64,000 nt of DNA, from the NCBI GenBank assembly GCA_964566505.1, contig CAZMIM010000002.1, forward strand, positions 46,529 to 110,528, written 5' to 3'. Both the position numbers and the translations under genes were made by a program. Shown here in pieces: positions 3,789 to 24,680 of the stretch. A model generated the notes under the pieces. The model was not told the origin of the DNA and ran no database searches. It worked only from the letters and a program-made list of their open reading frames with translations. Every line of letters starts with the position of its first letter. Within the stretch, counting starts at the first letter, position 1. Origin of the DNA: an uncultured Candidatus Saccharibacteria bacterium. GTDB taxonomy: Bacteria; Patescibacteriota; Minisyncoccia; Phycocordibacterales; PCTT01.

Positions 3789-3912
3789 CCCGATAGTGAT
3801 AGGAACCGCTTATTAAGCGTTTCCGAAAATTAGTTTGTAAATTAAGTTTTTCATAAGACTTTAACTTATCCCGATATTTTGAGTATTCAAAAATAACTCA
3901 ATCACTATCGGG
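3789..3912 (-). promoter_or_regulatory. Structured 5' element X1: a 12-bp long-range helix whose 3' strand abuts the start codon
   Basis: CCCGATAGTGAT (3789-3800) pairs perfectly with ATCACTATCGGG (3901-3912). It encloses two hairpins and an internal near-copy, ATCCCGATA. The gene's ATG (3788) is directly adjacent. It is homologous in layout to 32930-33071. Confidence 0.45.
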
Positions 3913-3986
3913 ACCATATGTTTTGAGTATACACACGAGCACAGTGCTCTAAAAGTAGACAGCGTGTCTATATCAGTTTTTAATTC

Positions 3987-4012
3987 AAAAACCGCCCATT
4001 TGGGCGGTTTTT
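3987..4012. terminator. Bidirectional intrinsic terminator downstream of rplL
   Basis: AAAAA-CCGCCC-ATTT-GGGCGG-TTTTT. Confidence 0.65.
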
Positions 4013-4059
4013 GTCTGGTCGGTGTGTAGTGTAGTTCTCAAATTACCCAACCTACAGGA

Positions 4060-4581
4060 TTATTTAAGATTTACTGTACCTCCTGCTTCCTCAACAGCTG
4101 ACTTAATAGCCTCTGCGTCATCCTTTGATGCTCCTTCCTTGAGTGCAACAGGTGCTCCTTCTACAAGGTCTTTTGCCTCCTTGAGACCAAGACCAAGTGC
4201 AGCCTTAACGGCTTTGATAACACCAATCTTTGAATCACCAAATGATGCAAGCTCTACAGTGAATGAGTCTTTCTCTTCCCCTGCGTCACCTCCTGCACCT
4301 GGTGCAGCTACTGCAACAGCGGCAGCTGATACTCCAAACTTCTTCTCAAGTACTTTTACAAGTGAGTGAAGCTCGAGCACTGACATTGCTTCAATTTTTG
4401 AAACAATCTCTTCAAATTCTTTTGGAATCTCTACCTCTTCCTCTGCCTCTTCTGCAGGAGAGTCATCTGAAGATGTCTCTTCTGTAGCCTCAGCTGGAGC
4501 GGCTTCTTCTTCCTTTGTTTCTTCTGCAGTCTCGGGAGTAGTCTCCTCTACTGCTTCAGTGTTTGTGTTTTCTTCAGTCAT
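4060..4581 (-). CDS. rplL: 50S ribosomal protein L7/L12 with ~52-aa acidic N-terminal extension
   Basis: The C-terminal ~120 aa are canonical L7/L12 ([25 protein letters not shown]...[15 protein letters not shown]). The ATG lies 3 nt after the rplJ stop. Confidence 0.9.
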
Positions 4582-6721: not shown

Positions 6722-7852
6722 ATGAAAAAGATTCTTTGGTGGATTGCACTCTTGGCACTCGTGCCGATGTTTGCAACCGCCCAGCAGATGGAGTACACCA
6801 GCACGGAAAAATTTCCTGTCGGTGAACACGAAGCTCCTGTAAGCCTCAGGACAGAACTGCGCGACGCTGTGTGCGGAGAAATCCGTGGCGAAGCGCACGT
6901 TATTGTACGAGGACACTACGACAGTCGTGAATACCCACTGGACAACCATGATCAGCAGTTCTTTTTAGGGCTCAGACGTGGTGCTGATGTAGCTCAATAC
7001 ATGGAACGCGTGTGCGCAATGCACAGAAGCAACTTCTCAGTACAGAGCTCATTTGCGCCCGGTGATCCGGACGACCCTCAAGGGAACGAGTCCAGAACAG
7101 TCACAATCATTTGGGGATTCTCAGATACTTCAGACTTCCAAACGGCTCAAGACTCCTACAACATGGACCTGGAGGACTTCTTCAACGAATTCCTCAATCC
7201 TTGGAAGGAGCTTGATCTTGCAAACCAGGCAGAAATGCTTGAGATTATGCGTTCTGTTGATGAGAAAATGATTGCATCGCAACTACAGCTTGCAAACATC
7301 TCTCGTCAAATCGATGAGCTTGCAGCCATGTCATGGAAACTCCCTCGCTGGAGCTTCCAGACCGGCATGCAGTTCTCGAGCAAATTTGGAACTGGCTTCA
7401 CCTTCTCGCTTTGTCGTAACTACTTTGACCAGAACATCGACTTCTGCCTCAAAGCATTTGCGGAAAACGAAAGCCACGAAGCACAAGCACTGCACCGCCC
7501 CTACCCTAATCAAGAAGTTCTTCATTGGGGAAAGTGGTACAGTGCCTCACTCATCATCAGGCCGTACCTGAAGAGCTTGGGCGAAAGTGCTCGAATCTTC
7601 ATGGACCTCGGTATCGGAGTAGCTCACGTGAACTACAATGGACCTCCGGACAAAAGCATCGGATACAACACTACCGGCATCATGCCCTCGATCGGATTTG
7701 GTCTCAAAACCAGATGGCGTTCGTGGGGGCTGGAGTTCGTAGGTACCGAGGAAGTCTGGATGTTCCCACAAGGCGTGGTGCTCCCGTCTTTCGAAGATGG
7801 TGACTACCATGTGAGCCTAGCTGGCTCTTTTGCTCTTTCGTATCATTTCTAG
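6722..7852 (+). CDS. Secreted OmpA-like (peptidoglycan-binding) protein with beta-barrel-like C-terminus; compositionally foreign
   Basis: Signal peptide MKKILWWIALLALVPMFATAQQ. OmpA_C-like pattern VRGHYDS...LGLRRGADVAQYM...NESRTVTIIW. The C-terminus ends ...SFALSYHF (terminal Phe, as in the OMP beta-signal). G+C is visibly higher than in the flanks. Confidence 0.6.
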   Translation: MKKILWWIALLALVPMFATAQQMEYTSTEKFPVGEHEAPVSLRTELRDAVCGEIRGEAHVIVRGHYDSREYPLDNHDQQFFLGLRRGADVAQYMERVCAMHRSNFSVQSSFAPGDPDDPQGNESRTVTIIWGFSDTSDFQTAQDSYNMDLEDFFNEFLNPWKELDLANQAEMLEIMRSVDEKMIASQLQLANISRQIDELAAMSWKLPRWSFQTGMQFSSKFGTGFTFSLCRNYFDQNIDFCLKAFAENESHEAQALHRPYPNQEVLHWGKWYSASLIIRPYLKSLGESARIFMDLGIGVAHVNYNGPPDKSIGYNTTGIMPSIGFGLKTRWRSWGLEFVGTEEVWMFPQGVVLPSFEDGDYHVSLAGSFALSYHF

Positions 7853-21787: not shown

Positions 21788-22549
21788 TTATTGATGTAAT
21801 TTTTTTAACTCCACCTCATTCATTCCTAGTTGGGTAATCATATACTTACTTCCATTAAAGTGTAAGTGGGCGTTATCGTGTACTAGTCTATGTAGTGTTC
21901 GTCTAAGATTTTTTTTCATAGATGGCTTGATCCATTTTTCTATCTCTTCATAAGTTGCGCCTAAATCGCCTCGTTCATATAACAACAACAAAATATATTG
22001 GCTAGCTTTAAGATTAGGTTTTAAGATTTTTAAAAACCCATCAAAATTTTGAATTGCCGGAATACGTCTTATCACTAAACTATTAATGATTTTCTGAGCT
22101 TCGTCAGCAGCACATCCATGATATAAACGCACAAATTCAGCAAGAGTCCAATCAATTCCAGAGACGACAATTGTTGCGTCTTGCATACTTGGATCTATGT
22201 CATCAGAGAGATGTGCCGCATCTCTATTATTGCGTATATCATAAATTACTCTTAATGTACGAGGAATATGTAAGCGGATTGAATCAGAATGTAAATGCTT
22301 TGGGGTGTTTGAAAGATTAATTGCCAATTTCTCAACGTCTAATTGTCTTCCCAGCGGCGTAAAACTACCAGTCGTTATTTGTTCTAGTAAACGAAAGGCA
22401 GCTTCACAAAATCGTCCACCCTCCACAGCATTCAATCTCAGACCACCAACTTGAAATTCTTGCTTTGCCTCTATATAGGATTCCAAAAGCTCATCAACTA
22501 ATGAGTGGTCAAAATGAGCGTAAAGGCTGGATTGAATAACGGTAAACAT
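21788..22549 (-). CDS. HEPN (Abi_C-like) domain protein with C-terminal winged-helix domain
   Basis: 253-aa ORF. The motif IYDIRNNRDAAHLSDD fits the HEPN R-x4-6-H / Abi_C RN..DAHG pattern. The C-terminus LLLLYERGDLGATYEEIEKWI...LHRLV looks wHTH-like. Confidence 0.5.
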   Translation of the reverse strand: MFTVIQSSLYAHFDHSLVDELLESYIEAKQEFQVGGLRLNAVEGGRFCEAAFRLLEQITTGSFTPLGRQLDVEKLAINLSNTPKHLHSDSIRLHIPRTLRVIYDIRNNRDAAHLSDDIDPSMQDATIVVSGIDWTLAEFVRLYHGCAADEAQKIINSLVIRRIPAIQNFDGFLKILKPNLKASQYILLLLYERGDLGATYEEIEKWIKPSMKKNLRRTLHRLVHDNAHLHFNGSKYMITQLGMNEVELKKLHQ

Positions 22550-22569
22550 AAGCCTGTATTCATTATTTG

Positions 22570-23112
22570 TTACTTGCTAGTTTTCTTTTTTCTTTTAGCC
22601 GAATATTTCTTTCGCTTAACTTTATTCTTTTCTATGGCTTTTTTTACCTCTTCTCGGTCAGGGAGTGCTTCTACCACAGCTTCTCCTAAAACTGACATTT
22701 GTTTATTACCTGCTCCAGCTTTGGCAAAATATCCATCTCTTTCTGCATTTCGAACAAATACGGCAGTGTTTGAGAAATCTGGTTGTGCGGCATCCCGATT
22801 TAGCTTTGTAATATTTTTAGTTTTAAAATGTGGGGTATCAGCATAGTGAGATAGATAATATCCAAGACATGTCACCCTCTCAACCTCAGAAGAAGGCTTT
22901 TTAAGAGACATGAAATCCTTAGGCGTCAAAGGCTGACCATTTTTAGTATTTGGATTATCATTACCAAGCAAATCTGAGCTTGCTTTTAACCCTCCGCCCA
23001 TAATCAACAAGATGACTTCTCGTGCAACTTTCTCTGTAATACTTTTGTCTTTTATTGTTATATCTCCTCCTGATAAATTTAATTTATATAATGGTTGTTT
23101 TTCGTTTTCCAT
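22570..23112 (-). CDS. Hypothetical protein, upstream partner of the HEPN gene; lysine-rich tail
   Basis: 180-aa ORF, 20 nt upstream of the HEPN gene on the same strand. No family recognised. It ends KNKVKRKKYSAKRKKKTSK. Confidence 0.45.
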   Translation of the reverse strand: MENEKQPLYKLNLSGGDITIKDKSITEKVAREVILLIMGGGLKASSDLLGNDNPNTKNGQPLTPKDFMSLKKPSSEVERVTCLGYYLSHYADTPHFKTKNITKLNRDAAQPDFSNTAVFVRNAERDGYFAKAGAGNKQMSVLGEAVVEALPDREEVKKAIEKNKVKRKKYSAKRKKKTSK

Positions 23113-23122
23113 ATATGCTAAA

Positions 23123-23174
23123 TTAGTCTAATAAATCATAAAGTTAGTCTACATATGACTTTTATGACTGTCAA
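23123..23174 (-). promoter_or_regulatory. Promoter with two direct 8-nt repeats (candidate operator) for the two-gene cassette
   Basis: Minus strand TTGACA-17 nt-TAGACT. TAGACTAA occurs twice, 21 bp apart (23123-23130 and 23144-23151). One copy overlaps the -10 box; the other sits just before the ATG. Confidence 0.45.
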
Positions 23175-23298
23175 GTATAAAAATTTATGAAATTTACCAT
23201 TTAACACGAACACTTCAAATCTTTTCTAGAAAAAAATTTCCCCATAAAACCTTCTGTTGTTTTGTATTACTTAGCGCTTAACCCGAAGTGGTTCGCAT

Positions 23299-23327
23299 TA
23301 AAACAACCCGAATTATCGGGTTGTTTT
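23299..23327. terminator. Bidirectional terminator
   Basis: AAAACAACCCGA-ATTA-TCGGGTTGTTTTT. Confidence 0.6.
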
Positions 23328-23366
23328 TATTCCCATAAATATTGTTTTTACAAATCTCTGGGATGT

Positions 23367-23372
23367 TACAAT
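23367..23372 (+). promoter_or_regulatory. -10 box (TACAAT) 8 nt upstream of the pilin ATG, implying a leaderless or near-leaderless mRNA
   Basis: GTTACAATAacaatatATG; the same GTTACAATA box and spacing occur upstream of pilB at 33717. Confidence 0.4.
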
Positions 23373-23380
23373 AACAATAT

Positions 23381-23788
23381 ATGAAAAGAGGTTTTACGCT
23401 CATAGAACTCCTTGTTGTAATAGCAATTATCGCAGTGCTCACATCTGTTGCACTTGCTTCATTTGAGCAAGCAAAAATAAAAGCACGAGACGCACGAAGA
23501 ATGTCTGATCTTGGTGAAATCGAAAACGCACTCAACCTATATTTCACAGAACACAATCTATTCCCTATTGAACCTTCGGTTGTCACAATCACAGGAGAAG
23601 ATGATTTCTCAACAACCCTCGAAACAGGAGGACACATCAGCGAAACTCCAATAGATCCATTTTCTCCAACATACGACTATACATATGTATCAAACTCTTC
23701 AGGAACGACATATACAATTACATTTTGTCTTGAGGGAACATCTATCGCGAGTTATGCTCAAGGATGTAGTAACACACTCACACCATAA
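23381..23788 (+). CDS. Type IV pilin / pseudopilin with prepilin N-terminal methylation motif
   Basis: MKRGFTLIELLVVIAIIAVLTSVAL is the class III signal (G/FTLIE). Confidence 0.85.
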   Translation: MKRGFTLIELLVVIAIIAVLTSVALASFEQAKIKARDARRMSDLGEIENALNLYFTEHNLFPIEPSVVTITGEDDFSTTLETGGHISETPIDPFSPTYDYTYVSNSSGTTYTITFCLEGTSIASYAQGCSNTLTP

Positions 23789-23790
23789 TT

Positions 23791-24234
23791 ATGTTTCAAT
23801 GGCGCACAGCAGAATATGACCTTATAGAAAAAGGAGTTGATTGGTTTATTGCCGTGTTTGTGATTGCGATTTCTATCGCAGTTAGCGCATTTATGTTTGG
23901 AAATATTTTGTTTGGAGTGTTTGTAATTGTTGCAGCCATTGCGCTATCGCTCCAAGGTGCTAGAGATCCAGATATTCTCGATGTTGAAGTAAATGAACGA
24001 GGTATTTCTATAAATGAGAAGTTTCTTGCATATAAAGATCTAAATGCTTTTTGGGTAGAATATGACTCGCAGCTACTTCTAATTCGAACACAAAAATTAT
24101 TTCATCCACATATAGTTCTCCCTGTCACAGATGTAGATAGCGACGAACTCGCCGAGTATTTGTCTAACTTTCTAGAAGAGGAAGAAATGGAAGAATCTCT
24201 CTTTCATAAGATTTTGGAATACTTGGGATTTTAA
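23791..24234 (+). CDS. Hypothetical two-TM membrane protein
   Basis: 147-aa ORF starting 3 nt after the pilin stop. Two adjacent TM helices are followed by a soluble acidic C-terminus. Confidence 0.5.
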   Translation: MFQWRTAEYDLIEKGVDWFIAVFVIAISIAVSAFMFGNILFGVFVIVAAIALSLQGARDPDILDVEVNERGISINEKFLAYKDLNAFWVEYDSQLLLIRTQKLFHPHIVLPVTDVDSDELAEYLSNFLEEEEMEESLFHKILEYLGF

Positions 24235-24236
24235 TT

Positions 24237-24310
24237 TGTGCTCTCGCCAAGAATCGAACTTGGATCACAGGTTCCGCAAACCTGTATTCTATCCATTAAA
24301 CTACGAGAGC
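24237..24310 (-). tRNA. tRNA-Arg (anticodon GCG)
   Basis: Acceptor GCTCTCG/CGAGAGC, anticodon arm CAGGT-TTGCGGA-ACCTG, T-arm CCAAG-TTCGATT-CTTGG. Confidence 0.8.
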
Positions 24311-24351
24311 GTGTGTTGAGTATATCTAAAAAAAACACATTGTTAAACACG

Positions 24352-24380
24352 TTGACCCAAAATACATATAACTGTATTGT
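24352..24380 (+). promoter_or_regulatory. Candidate promoter
   Basis: TTGACC-17 nt-TATTGT; the AGAGG Shine-Dalgarno of the 87-aa ORF follows. Confidence 0.45.
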
Positions 24381-24416
24381 CTTAAATAGAAACTCAAACA
24401 AAACAAGAGGTTTATA

Positions 24417-24680
24417 ATGCACCAACTAAAAGCGCTCGAGGAAAAAGTTTTAGCTGAATTCCCAGAAGCCACCACAGAACTCGACCTTGCAGATAATCCA
24501 AATGGACGTTCTTTTCTTGATATTAATTGGAAAGAAAATTTTGCAACGGTCGGATGGCAGCAAGAACACGGCTTTGCTGTCTGGGAAGAACTAAATACGG
24601 TTTTCGGACAAGGTCCTGACAAGAAAGTTACAAGCCTGGAAGAAGCGTTTGACGAAGTGAAGCGCCTTTTCTCCAGCTAG
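24417..24680 (+). CDS. Hypothetical small protein (87 aa)
   Basis: ORF with its own promoter, Shine-Dalgarno and terminator. No family recognised. Confidence 0.5.
   Translation: MHQLKALEEKVLAEFPEATTELDLADNPNGRSFLDINWKENFATVGWQQEHGFAVWEELNTVFGQGPDKKVTSLEEAFDEVKRLFSS

Follow-up and report, generated by a model that had tools for sequence, protein, structure and literature searches.

A two-gene cassette encoding a probable HEPN-domain protein and a winged-helix partner, a candidate toxin-antitoxin-like ribonuclease module, in a Candidatus Saccharibacteria contig

The question raised by positions 21788–23174 of a 64,000-nucleotide stretch from an uncultured Candidatus Saccharibacteria bacterium (GenBank:CAZMIM010000002.1, positions 46,529 to 110,528; the whole stretch analysed is called the window hereafter) is what is done by a pair of adjacent genes, named geneA and geneB here, which an initial annotation had put forward as a defence or toxin-antitoxin cassette. 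The interpretation that we regard, with modest confidence, as probable is that the two genes form a bicistronic RNase (ribonuclease) module resembling toxin-antitoxin or abortive-infection systems, of a family without a database entry, in which geneB would be the toxin and geneA would both repress the operon and neutralise the toxin. Established by the analysis are the reality of the genes, the fold, the motif placement, strict pairing and co-inheritance, conservation of promoter and dyad in close relatives and the association with tRNA genes. The two genes are as follows.

22570–23112, minus strand: geneA, 180-aa partner protein, proposed antitoxin and repressor (open reading frame (ORF), homologues and AlphaFold model)
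21788–22549, minus strand: geneB, 253-aa protein with HEPN and winged-helix domains, proposed RNase toxin (ORF, homologues and AlphaFold model)

Both ORFs were located where the initial annotation had placed them, co-directional from geneA to geneB and separated by an intergenic gap of 20 nt, and having more than 1,400 homologues they are far beyond chance ORFs.

Domain structure of the two proteins

The AlphaFold model of the geneB protein had a mean predicted local distance difference test score (pLDDT) of 85.8 and was divided into two domains, the first of which carries two motifs.

22070–22549, minus strand: geneB residues 1–160, HEPN-type helical bundle (AlphaFold model)
22391–22405, minus strand: codons of E49-A-A-F-R53, Ex3[KR] motif in helix 2, residues 44–60 (alignments and model)
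22211–22234, minus strand: codons of R106-N-N-R-D-A-A-H113, Rx6H motif at the end of helix 3 in the model
21800–22057, minus strand: geneB residues 165–250, winged helix-turn-helix domain (AlphaFold model and profile match)

HEPN domains have been described as four-helix up-and-down bundles in which helices 2 and 3 are commonly separated by an insert and in which the catalytic motif often lies within a flexible non-helical stretch and has a polar residue after the R, and in which helix 2 carries a conserved acidic residue, typically as Ex3[KR] (PMC3710099). In the geneB model, helices were present at residues 15–33, 44–60, 89–113 and 122–145, with residues 61–88 inserted between the second and the third, so that a helical bundle with an insert, an Rx6H where helix 3 ends and an Ex3R in helix 2 were all found by model and alignment. 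The segment IYDIRNNRDAAHLSDD, which corresponds to residues 102–117 of the 253, contains R106-N107-x5-H113 with a 6-residue spacer and the polar N directly after R106; R106–H113 are situated at the C-terminal end of helix 89–113 as it enters the loop 110–118, the sole low-confidence loop of the model, and E49-x3-R53 is situated in helix 44–60. The RNNRDAAH segment, whose alignment to the HEPN catalytic helices had been suggested as a check, is therefore at the position that HEPN domains require. Residues invariant among close relatives include E43-G-G-R46, C48, E49, R53, R92, P96, R97, R100, Y103, D104, R106, N107, R109, D110, H113, D116, D119, Q123, D124, W134, E138, R141 and H144. When more diverse relatives (26–52% identity) were aligned, E49, R109, H113, D124, W134 and R141 were still invariant and, down to 26% identity, R92, P96, R106 and E138 nearly so, with no invariant Ser or Tyr nucleophile. 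Since the fold and the motif placement are taken together, the modelled N-terminal domain of geneB is very probably a HEPN domain.

The initial annotation had further described this domain as Abi_C-like. A weak match to Abi_C (PF14355) was obtained on the motif region in 6 of 49 geneB relatives (best E = 0.02), and the family consensus scored 12.6–13.7 bits, residues 101–136 aligning with profile positions 40–77 of 83; because these scores are lower than the Pfam gathering cut-off of 24 bits, geneB is not a member of Abi_C by the Pfam rule, and geneB of the window itself gave no Abi_C match. Motif and fold thus uphold the HEPN part of that description, and the likeness to Abi_C is weak and sub-threshold. 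Foldseek aligned the geneB model with 2hsb (TM (template modelling) score 0.63, target-normalised; probability 0.84), but with an E value of 1.3. The C-terminal winged helix predicted for the same protein was recovered in the model at residues ~165–250, of the MarR/PadR type, with strands 166–175 and 229–238 and helices 182–196, 200–206 and 209–225; a sequence-profile search of the PDB returned only winged-helix matches for geneB, including one to TubR (E = 0.022).

The geneA protein was modelled with a pLDDT of 85 and has three parts, with a linker at residues 40–60 that is disordered in the model.

22996–23091, minus strand: geneA residues 8–39, beta-hairpin and helix head (strands 8–15 and 18–26, helix 27–39 in the model)
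22624–22929, minus strand: geneA residues 62–163, winged helix-turn-helix domain (pLDDT ~97)
22573–22629, minus strand: geneA residues 162–180, Lys/Arg-rich disordered tail (sequence; low pLDDT)

Within the family it is the head that varies, a helical version being present in most relatives, and the conserved residues of the winged helix are F67, K71, P73, R79, C82, N115, G143 and P151. The C-terminus reads KNKVKRKKYSAKRKKKTSK, and a basic tail is kept across the family of type-A partners, to which geneA belongs; 146 homologues were collected by a profile search. The model places geneA among the winged-helix proteins, in a family that has not been described. It had been presented at first as a protein with a Lys-rich tail and without recognisable family; the tail is present, and the second half of that statement has to be amended by the confident winged-helix fold. 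A common origin of the winged helices of geneA and geneB was considered and found unsupported (hhalign probability 1.6%).

Pairing, distribution and promoter

Pairing of the two genes was evaluated in ~80 genome loci (labelled L and a number) and separately in metagenome loci, 64 of which were evaluable. Using a profile built from geneA relatives, a type A gene was found directly upstream of geneB and on the same strand in ~60 of the 80 genome loci, and most of the remainder had another protein of 175–200 aa at the partner position, of types B and C, which are homologous to type A (hhalign 97.8%, E = 1e-12, and 90.7%, E = 1e-6, respectively); in L012 and L017, two small winged-helix ORFs took the place of the partner. 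A partner was present in 61 of the 64 evaluable metagenome loci, which constitute an independent set, and co-occurrence in other genomes, the second check suggested at the outset, is thus borne out in both sets. The gap between partner and geneB was mostly −4 to +30 nt, and the pairwise-identity matrices of the two were correlated (r = 0.56, Mantel p = 0.001), the partner being the faster-evolving member with a mean identity of 34.5% versus 56% for geneB. The pair is obligatory and co-inherited. With small, adjacent and co-directional genes, tight spacing and strict co-occurrence, its layout is like that of type II toxin-antitoxin systems.

Clustering of all ORFs revealed no third widely conserved gene within 5 kb, the sole recurrent extra being a small additional winged-helix ORF at 12 loci, by which some cassettes become three- or four-gene. 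Such extra ORFs (113–127 aa) were located upstream of the partner at L027:5035–5397, L029:5035–5397, L070:5036–5419, L012:295–989 and L017:5244–5988; they have a beta-hairpin/helix head like that of geneA, followed by a short winged-helix-like segment with the pattern ...GFF..PK....V...LEE.GH.YP.TTLS..L.RLV....LRR.K. It was also noticed that L039 and L040, ~280 kb apart on the same Longimicrobiales contig, carry two identical copies of geneB, shortened at the N-terminus (match from residue 21), upstream of which no partner ORF could be recognised; these copies may have become pseudogenes or may belong to a segment that was duplicated or transposed.

Homologues of geneB numbered 1,426 in a collection clustered at 90%, giving 1,114 representatives at 50% clustering, of which 193 were below 1e-30, and nearly all were ~255 aa with the same architecture. 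A scan of one genome per species found geneB at 127 places, 48–65% identical to the window protein. The hosts include Peribacteria, Paceibacterota, Zambryskibacteria, Bradyrhizobium and other Alphaproteobacteria, Acidobacteriota, Verrucomicrobiota, Planctomycetota, Gemmatimonadota, Actinomycetota (Streptomyces, Amycolatopsis), an uncultured archaeon and Nitrososphaera, a distribution that is patchy over phyla and has unrelated neighbourhoods, with the closest relatives of the window cassette in Peribacteria and Paceibacterota. Together with low G+C and compact housekeeping surroundings, these relatives suggest a bacterium of the candidate phyla radiation type as the host of the window. Cultured carriers include Bradyrhizobium ganzhouense JCM19881, Bradyrhizobium sp. 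LMTR 3, Streptomyces doudnae DSM 41981 and Amycolatopsis rifamycinica DSM 46095. Neither protein matched Pfam, NCBIfam, PADLOC or PHROGs at threshold, and geneB had no match in these up to E = 1; the only match below E = 1 for geneA, to pPIWI_RE_X (E = 0.01), was well under the cut-off and was disregarded. The homologues of geneB are annotated solely as "hypothetical protein" in the source records, and no description of the geneA/geneB pair was found in the literature searched. Among the HEPN RNase conflict modules, themselves a known kind, the pair represents a family, and a proposed combination of toxin and partner, that had not been described before.

Upstream of geneA, the following elements were located.

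23146–23174, minus strand: sigma-70-like promoter TTGACA-17-TAGACT (10 of 12 consensus matches)
23123–23151, minus strand: operator-like region, with TAGACTAA at 23144–23151, TTATGATT at 23134–23141 and TAGACTAA again at 23123–23130

The promoter of the initial annotation was thereby recovered, at 23174–23146. Among the four most similar cassettes, namely those of the window, L006, L007 (Peribacteria) and L008 (Rhodospirillaceae), the promoter layout was common to all and the −35 context TTGACAGTCATAA was common to the window and L008, and three of the four had a dyad over the −10 box (CCCTAA-ag-TTAGG in L006, ATCCTAA-tt-TTAGGAT in L007 and GTTAATCATAA-ag-TTATGATTAAC in L008). At the position of the left half, the window has TAGACTAA, which recurs 21 nt downstream. 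This 8-mer had been taken initially as the repeat for autorepression; the two copies do exist (23151–23144 and 23130–23123, with one further occurrence in the 64 kb), but as a conserved element the 8-mer has to give way to the −10 dyad, which is what the relatives keep. At the level of sequence, the dyad in close relatives supports a predicted operator at the −10 box and putative autoregulation. Upstream of their cassettes, the window (23101–23200, minus strand) and L008 (322–433), the latter from Rhodospirillaceae, have TTGACAGTCATAA as non-coding promoter core and TTATGATT as half-site in common, which indicates that the promoter travels with the genes across phyla.

The RNase activity, toxicity, neutralisation, repression and trigger that we infer would fit together as follows. 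The geneA protein, whose translation would immediately precede that of geneB on a transcript from the shared promoter, would bind the putative operator over the −10 box so that the operon is repressed, and would keep the RNase inactive by direct binding. The geneB protein is predicted to be a metal-independent HEPN ribonuclease with an active site that is formed by R106, N107 and H113 together with E49 and, like that of other HEPN enzymes, probably spans a dimer. Upon loss or displacement of the partner, as might occur by phage infection, loss of the element or stress, the RNase would be freed and would cut essential RNAs until growth stops, the role being addiction, abortive infection or both. 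The module moves as one piece together with its promoter, and a minority of the genomes have it as an islet of 1.5–3 kb at tRNA genes.

tRNA genes, direct repeats and neighbours

The surroundings of the window cassette consist of housekeeping genes and tRNAs, and the features nearest to it are as follows.

21013–21468, plus strand: gene for a free-standing HNH endonuclease of 151 aa, directly upstream of tRNA-Ser
21496–21581, plus strand: tRNA-Ser(TGA), convergent with geneB
21597–21613: hairpin between tRNA-Ser and geneB, downstream of geneB
21733–21751, plus strand: direct repeat of the tRNA-Ser 3′ end, matching 21564–21582 at 18 of 19 positions (exact 16-nt core)
23300–23327, both strands: hairpin of the bidirectional terminator type, upstream of the cassette promoter (folding energy)

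The tRNA-Ser and the HNH protein had both been named as neighbours initially, and both were found. The HNH protein matched Pfam HNH (E = 6.7e-5) and the PADLOC models of a homing endonuclease and a ZorE-type HNH protein (E ~1e-8) and has several CxxC zinc-ribbon-like motifs in its N-terminal half; its gene is not kept beside the cassette in other genomes. The hairpin at 23300–23327 has a 12-bp stem and is strong on both strands (dG, the folding free energy, −16.5 and −17.6 kcal/mol; z −4.6 and −4.9), in agreement with the bidirectional terminator proposed as a boundary, but being upstream of the promoter it insulates the cassette and does not end its transcript, a role for which the hairpin at 21597–21613, likely a shared terminator of the convergent tRNA-Ser and cassette transcripts, is the candidate. 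The gene diverging from the cassette (23381–23788, plus strand) codes for a product with a type IV pilin-like N-terminus (KRGFTLIELLVVIAIIAVL).

Proximity to tRNA genes was not limited to the window. In the genome loci, 7 of 17 tRNAs were at most 500 bp from the cassette versus 1.75 expected (p = 0.001), and genome and metagenome loci together had 10 versus 3.2 expected (p = 0.0006); in the metagenome loci alone the statistic was not significant, these being underpowered. The usual geometry is that of the window, with the tRNA just downstream and convergent (L007, L008, L028, L051, L052, L071, L093 and L162), and the orientation of the cassette relative to the tRNA is not fixed. In addition, the cassette was bracketed by direct repeats of tRNA or lepA pieces at ~12 of the 80 genome loci and at two metagenome loci, most loci having no flanking repeat. 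Cases with their repeats are listed below.

L028: repeat of 60 nt of tRNA-Leu, span 1.9 kb
L067: repeat of 19 nt from the 3′ end of tRNA-Asp, span 1.5 kb
L024: repeat of 231 nt, the 5′ half of tRNA-Ser and its flank, span 2.1 kb
L013: repeat of 145 nt, the 3′ half of tRNA-Arg and its flank, 133 identical (tRNA part exact, flank diverged)
L051: repeat of 43 nt of tRNA-Met
L014: repeat of 29 nt of tRNA-Ser
L048: repeat of 48 nt
L027 (Bradyrhizobium): lepA 3′ end, 90 nt, at 4024–4113 and 6823–6905
L029 (Bradyrhizobium): lepA 3′ end, 213 nt, 212 of 213 identical, at 3801–4013 and 6773–6985

Further repeat-bracketed loci were L074, L070, L007, L138 and L145, of which L074, L007 and L138 are tight cases; spans were slightly larger in L013, L014, L048, L051, L027 and L029. 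The repeats were 3′ parts of tRNAs in L028, L013, L014, L051 and L067, with other targets in L024, L027, L029, L048, L074 and L138. Between them were the two cassette genes alone or with small (winged-helix) ORFs, and no recombinase. Exact repeats of at least 18 nt were found in 10 of 64 loci versus 8 of 252 shifted controls from the same loci (p = 0.0007) and in none of 240 mismatched-flank controls; the metagenome loci alone (1 of 37 versus 3 of 63) gave no significance and were underpowered, and the combined p was 0.008. In L027 and L029, the cassette and the extra small winged-helix gene were inserted at the lepA 3′ end, and the duplication of this end resembles that made by some prophages replacing the 3′ end of a target gene.

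Only one integrase-like ORF was found beside the ~80 cassettes, by a motif filter of limited sensitivity, and none in the window by phmmer, likewise of limited sensitivity. It is located at L019:3734–5071 (minus strand) in the complete genome of Bradyrhizobium ganzhouense JCM19881 and codes for a P4-type tyrosine-integrase-like protein of 445 aa (...HDLRRS...); no bracketing repeats were present within the 12.7 kb examined at this locus. In the window, 36 nt separate the geneB stop from the copy of the tRNA-Ser 3′ end, and the pair 21564–21582 and 21733–21751 encloses a 150-bp spacer, leaving the cassette just outside; no third copy was found on the promoter side of the cassette, and the search for an empty site or near relatives gave no metagenome match to the 3′ 44 nt of the tRNA-Ser gene. 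The spacer (21583–21732) contains an inverted 12-mer of the tRNA T-arm (GTTCGAATCCCA, 21634–21645) and a hairpin GGGAGAAAC...GTTTCTCCC (~21659–21680), and L008 is similar in having two partial tRNA-Gln copies between cassette and tRNA. The spacer looks like a scar of an earlier integration or excision at tRNA-Ser. We read these observations as the cassette riding on, or persisting as, very small islets at integration hot spots.

Alternative readings and relation to known systems

Several results weigh against an RNase toxin-antitoxin-like module and have to be set beside the evidence above. No significant match was obtained to curated HEPN, toxin-antitoxin or defence models, nor did Foldseek return a significant match of geneB in the PDB. 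The family was not found in 50,697 phage records or in 2.9 million IMG/VR viral contigs, and plasmids gave a single distant match in 72,556 records, which is unusual for addiction modules. Toxins are usually fast-evolving, so that the identity of ~56–60% that geneB keeps across phyla, bacteria of the candidate phyla radiation (CPR) and archaea included, is unusually high and hints at extra constraints. The putative operator of the window is degenerate, with the right half-site only (TTATGATT, 23134–23141), and the TAGACTAA repeat was rejected as stand-alone evidence for an operator, because 5–8% of 70-nt stretches of the window hold a direct repeat of an 8-mer within 45 nt. Finally, the 150 immediate neighbours in 75 loci were heterogeneous and mostly housekeeping genes (PEPCK, LepA, HisRS, aminotransferases), a few being methyltransferase, specificity-subunit or relaxase genes. 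As for the plasmid match, it is located at 2165–2566 of NC_007427.1 (Natronomonas pharaonis PL131), is annotated as a hypothetical protein and, being from an archaeon, is only distantly related to geneB, in its HEPN part (residues 18–154, 33% identity).

The pair might primarily serve as an anti-phage abortive-infection or sensor-effector system and not in addiction, with a phage protein or foreign nucleic acid being sensed by the winged helices of geneA, geneB or both, whereupon translation would be stopped by the HEPN RNase; this overlaps with the toxin-antitoxin-like reading, from which it differs in the trigger and in the role of the partner, a sensor versus a labile antitoxin. We consider it possible, although not probable: Abi_C is the profile that comes nearest, if weakly, abortive-infection and defence systems often have HEPN effectors (PMC3710099), a HEPN and winged-helix pair acts in defence in retron type IX, models of methyltransferases, specificity subunits or 'mads' defence are matched by a few immediate neighbours, and two loci have restriction-modification surroundings, L006 adjoining EcoRI and its methylase and L089 being flanked by a type I restriction-modification system on one side and an Mrr-type nuclease on the other; on the other side stand the lack of a PADLOC match for either protein and the housekeeping character of most neighbours, those of the window included. 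The least likely alternative, a two-component transcription-regulator unit, would make the geneB bundle a non-catalytic HEPN domain binding a ligand or nucleic acid and let both winged helices regulate host genes. Both proteins do carry winged helices of the MarR/PadR kind and some HEPN domains are non-catalytic binding domains, but inactive ones lose the catalytic set (PMC3710099), and in geneB R106, N107, H113 and E49 are invariant or nearly so; in addition, there is no conserved neighbouring target operon, and a patchy, horizontally spread distribution is unlike that of a host regulator.

The repeats raise a different alternative, namely that geneA and geneB provide a minimal integrative element with its mobility machinery, or bring in host recombination, and direct insertion at tRNA genes and where conserved genes have their 3′ ends, the HEPN domain acting on nucleic acid in the course of insertion or excision and not as a toxin. 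The excess of repeats and of tRNAs over controls, the small content of the repeat-bracketed segments (little beyond two genes in L028, L067, L024, L074, L007 and L138), the near lack of integrases and the very high conservation of geneB, suggestive of a universal macromolecular target, are in its favour. However, HEPN chemistry uses the 2′-OH of RNA and cannot cut DNA, geneB lacks an invariant Ser or Tyr nucleophile, the orientation to the tRNA is variable, most loci have no flanking repeat, the metagenome set did not replicate the repeats significantly and the window repeat pair does not enclose the cassette; moreover, mobilisation in trans by resident integrases, Campbell-type homologous insertion, or the decay of larger islands in which an addictive module is retained would account for the repeats equally well. 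This alternative is thus unlikely in our judgement. We hold the same low expectation for a self-sufficient minimal mobile element that has no recombinase to be recognised and in which HEPN-fold and winged-helix proteins steer insertion into tRNA genes and conserved-gene 3′ ends or take advantage of it; such an element might be excised via its flanking repeats and, once in a new host, re-inserted in Campbell fashion at the target conserved there, its retention being enforced by the RNase, and if true it would be a new kind of recombinase-free selfish islet spreading across bacteria and archaea.

Returning to the RNase toxin-antitoxin-like module, HEPN RNases act as effectors of central importance in toxin-antitoxin systems and abortive infection, as well as in CRISPR accessory nucleases and in retrons, and if the reading is true, a large, highly conserved and taxonomically broad HEPN family (CPR bacteria, Proteobacteria, Acidobacteriota, Actinomycetota and Thaumarchaeota) that the annotation and defence resources searched do not recognise would be added to them. 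A name and a testable function would be given to well above 1,000 clusters of 'hypothetical proteins', and the tRNA association and the recombinase-free repeat brackets raise the question of the route by which tiny modules pass between phyla. To our knowledge, winged-helix neutralisers are so far known only from retron type IX.

Among the known systems, HepT/MntA (HEPN/MNT) is likewise a small two-gene operon, widespread, horizontally mobile and patchy, and its toxin is, as is predicted for geneB, a HEPN RNase having Rx4-6H, but MntA is a minimal nucleotidyltransferase (MNT) that AMPylates the toxin, whereas geneA is a winged helix with no nucleotidyltransferase match, geneB has an extra C-terminal winged helix and no sequence-level match was found. 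With Abi_C (PF14355) and AbiJ the cassette shares an RN...AH-type motif and the weak profile similarity exactly over the motif region; AbiJ, however, is a single protein whose HEPN domain is C-terminal behind a sensor domain, in contrast to the N-terminal HEPN followed by a winged helix in geneB and the separate, obligatory partner gene. RnlA/RnlB and LsoA/LsoB offer a HEPN RNase toxin with an anti-phage role that is neutralised by direct binding of a small antitoxin, but their toxin is multi-domain with an unrelated architecture, their antitoxin is not a winged helix and the gene order differs. AbiE (AbiEi/AbiEii) and other winged-helix or helix-turn-helix antitoxins resemble the cassette in an upstream winged-helix gene, whose product represses its own promoter via repeats over the core promoter, as is proposed for geneA, whereas the AbiE toxin is a nucleotidyltransferase and not a HEPN RNase, and no sequence relationship was detected. 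As regards its location, the cassette is similar to tRNA-linked islets and cis-mobilisable elements without integrase, which adjoin tRNA genes and are flanked by direct repeats of partial tRNA copies; unlike in these, the two-gene cassette is the sole constant cargo across phyla, the targets (tRNAs for Leu, Arg, Ser, Met, Asp and Gln, and lepA) and the orientation vary, and most copies have no repeats.

In retron type IX (Retron-Kva2), a HEPN RNase is toxic alone, and a separate winged-helix protein of 245 aa and three domains, the C-terminal end of which contacts nucleic acid, by itself mitigates the toxicity by enclosing the HEPN active site (bioRxiv 10.64898/2026.07.14.738597). That system differs in needing a reverse transcriptase and multicopy single-stranded DNA (msDNA), and near the cassette no ORF of reverse-transcriptase size was found, nor any RNA family besides tRNA in 20500–24500; in place of Rx4-6H, which it lacks, its HEPN protein also uses H64/R122. 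A homologous relationship with the effectors of retron type IX was considered and rejected, as there was no sequence signal (PADLOC) and the architecture described is different. By analogy, retron type IX may nevertheless be regarded as the nearest functional precedent for the geneA/geneB cassette, an analogue and not a relative.

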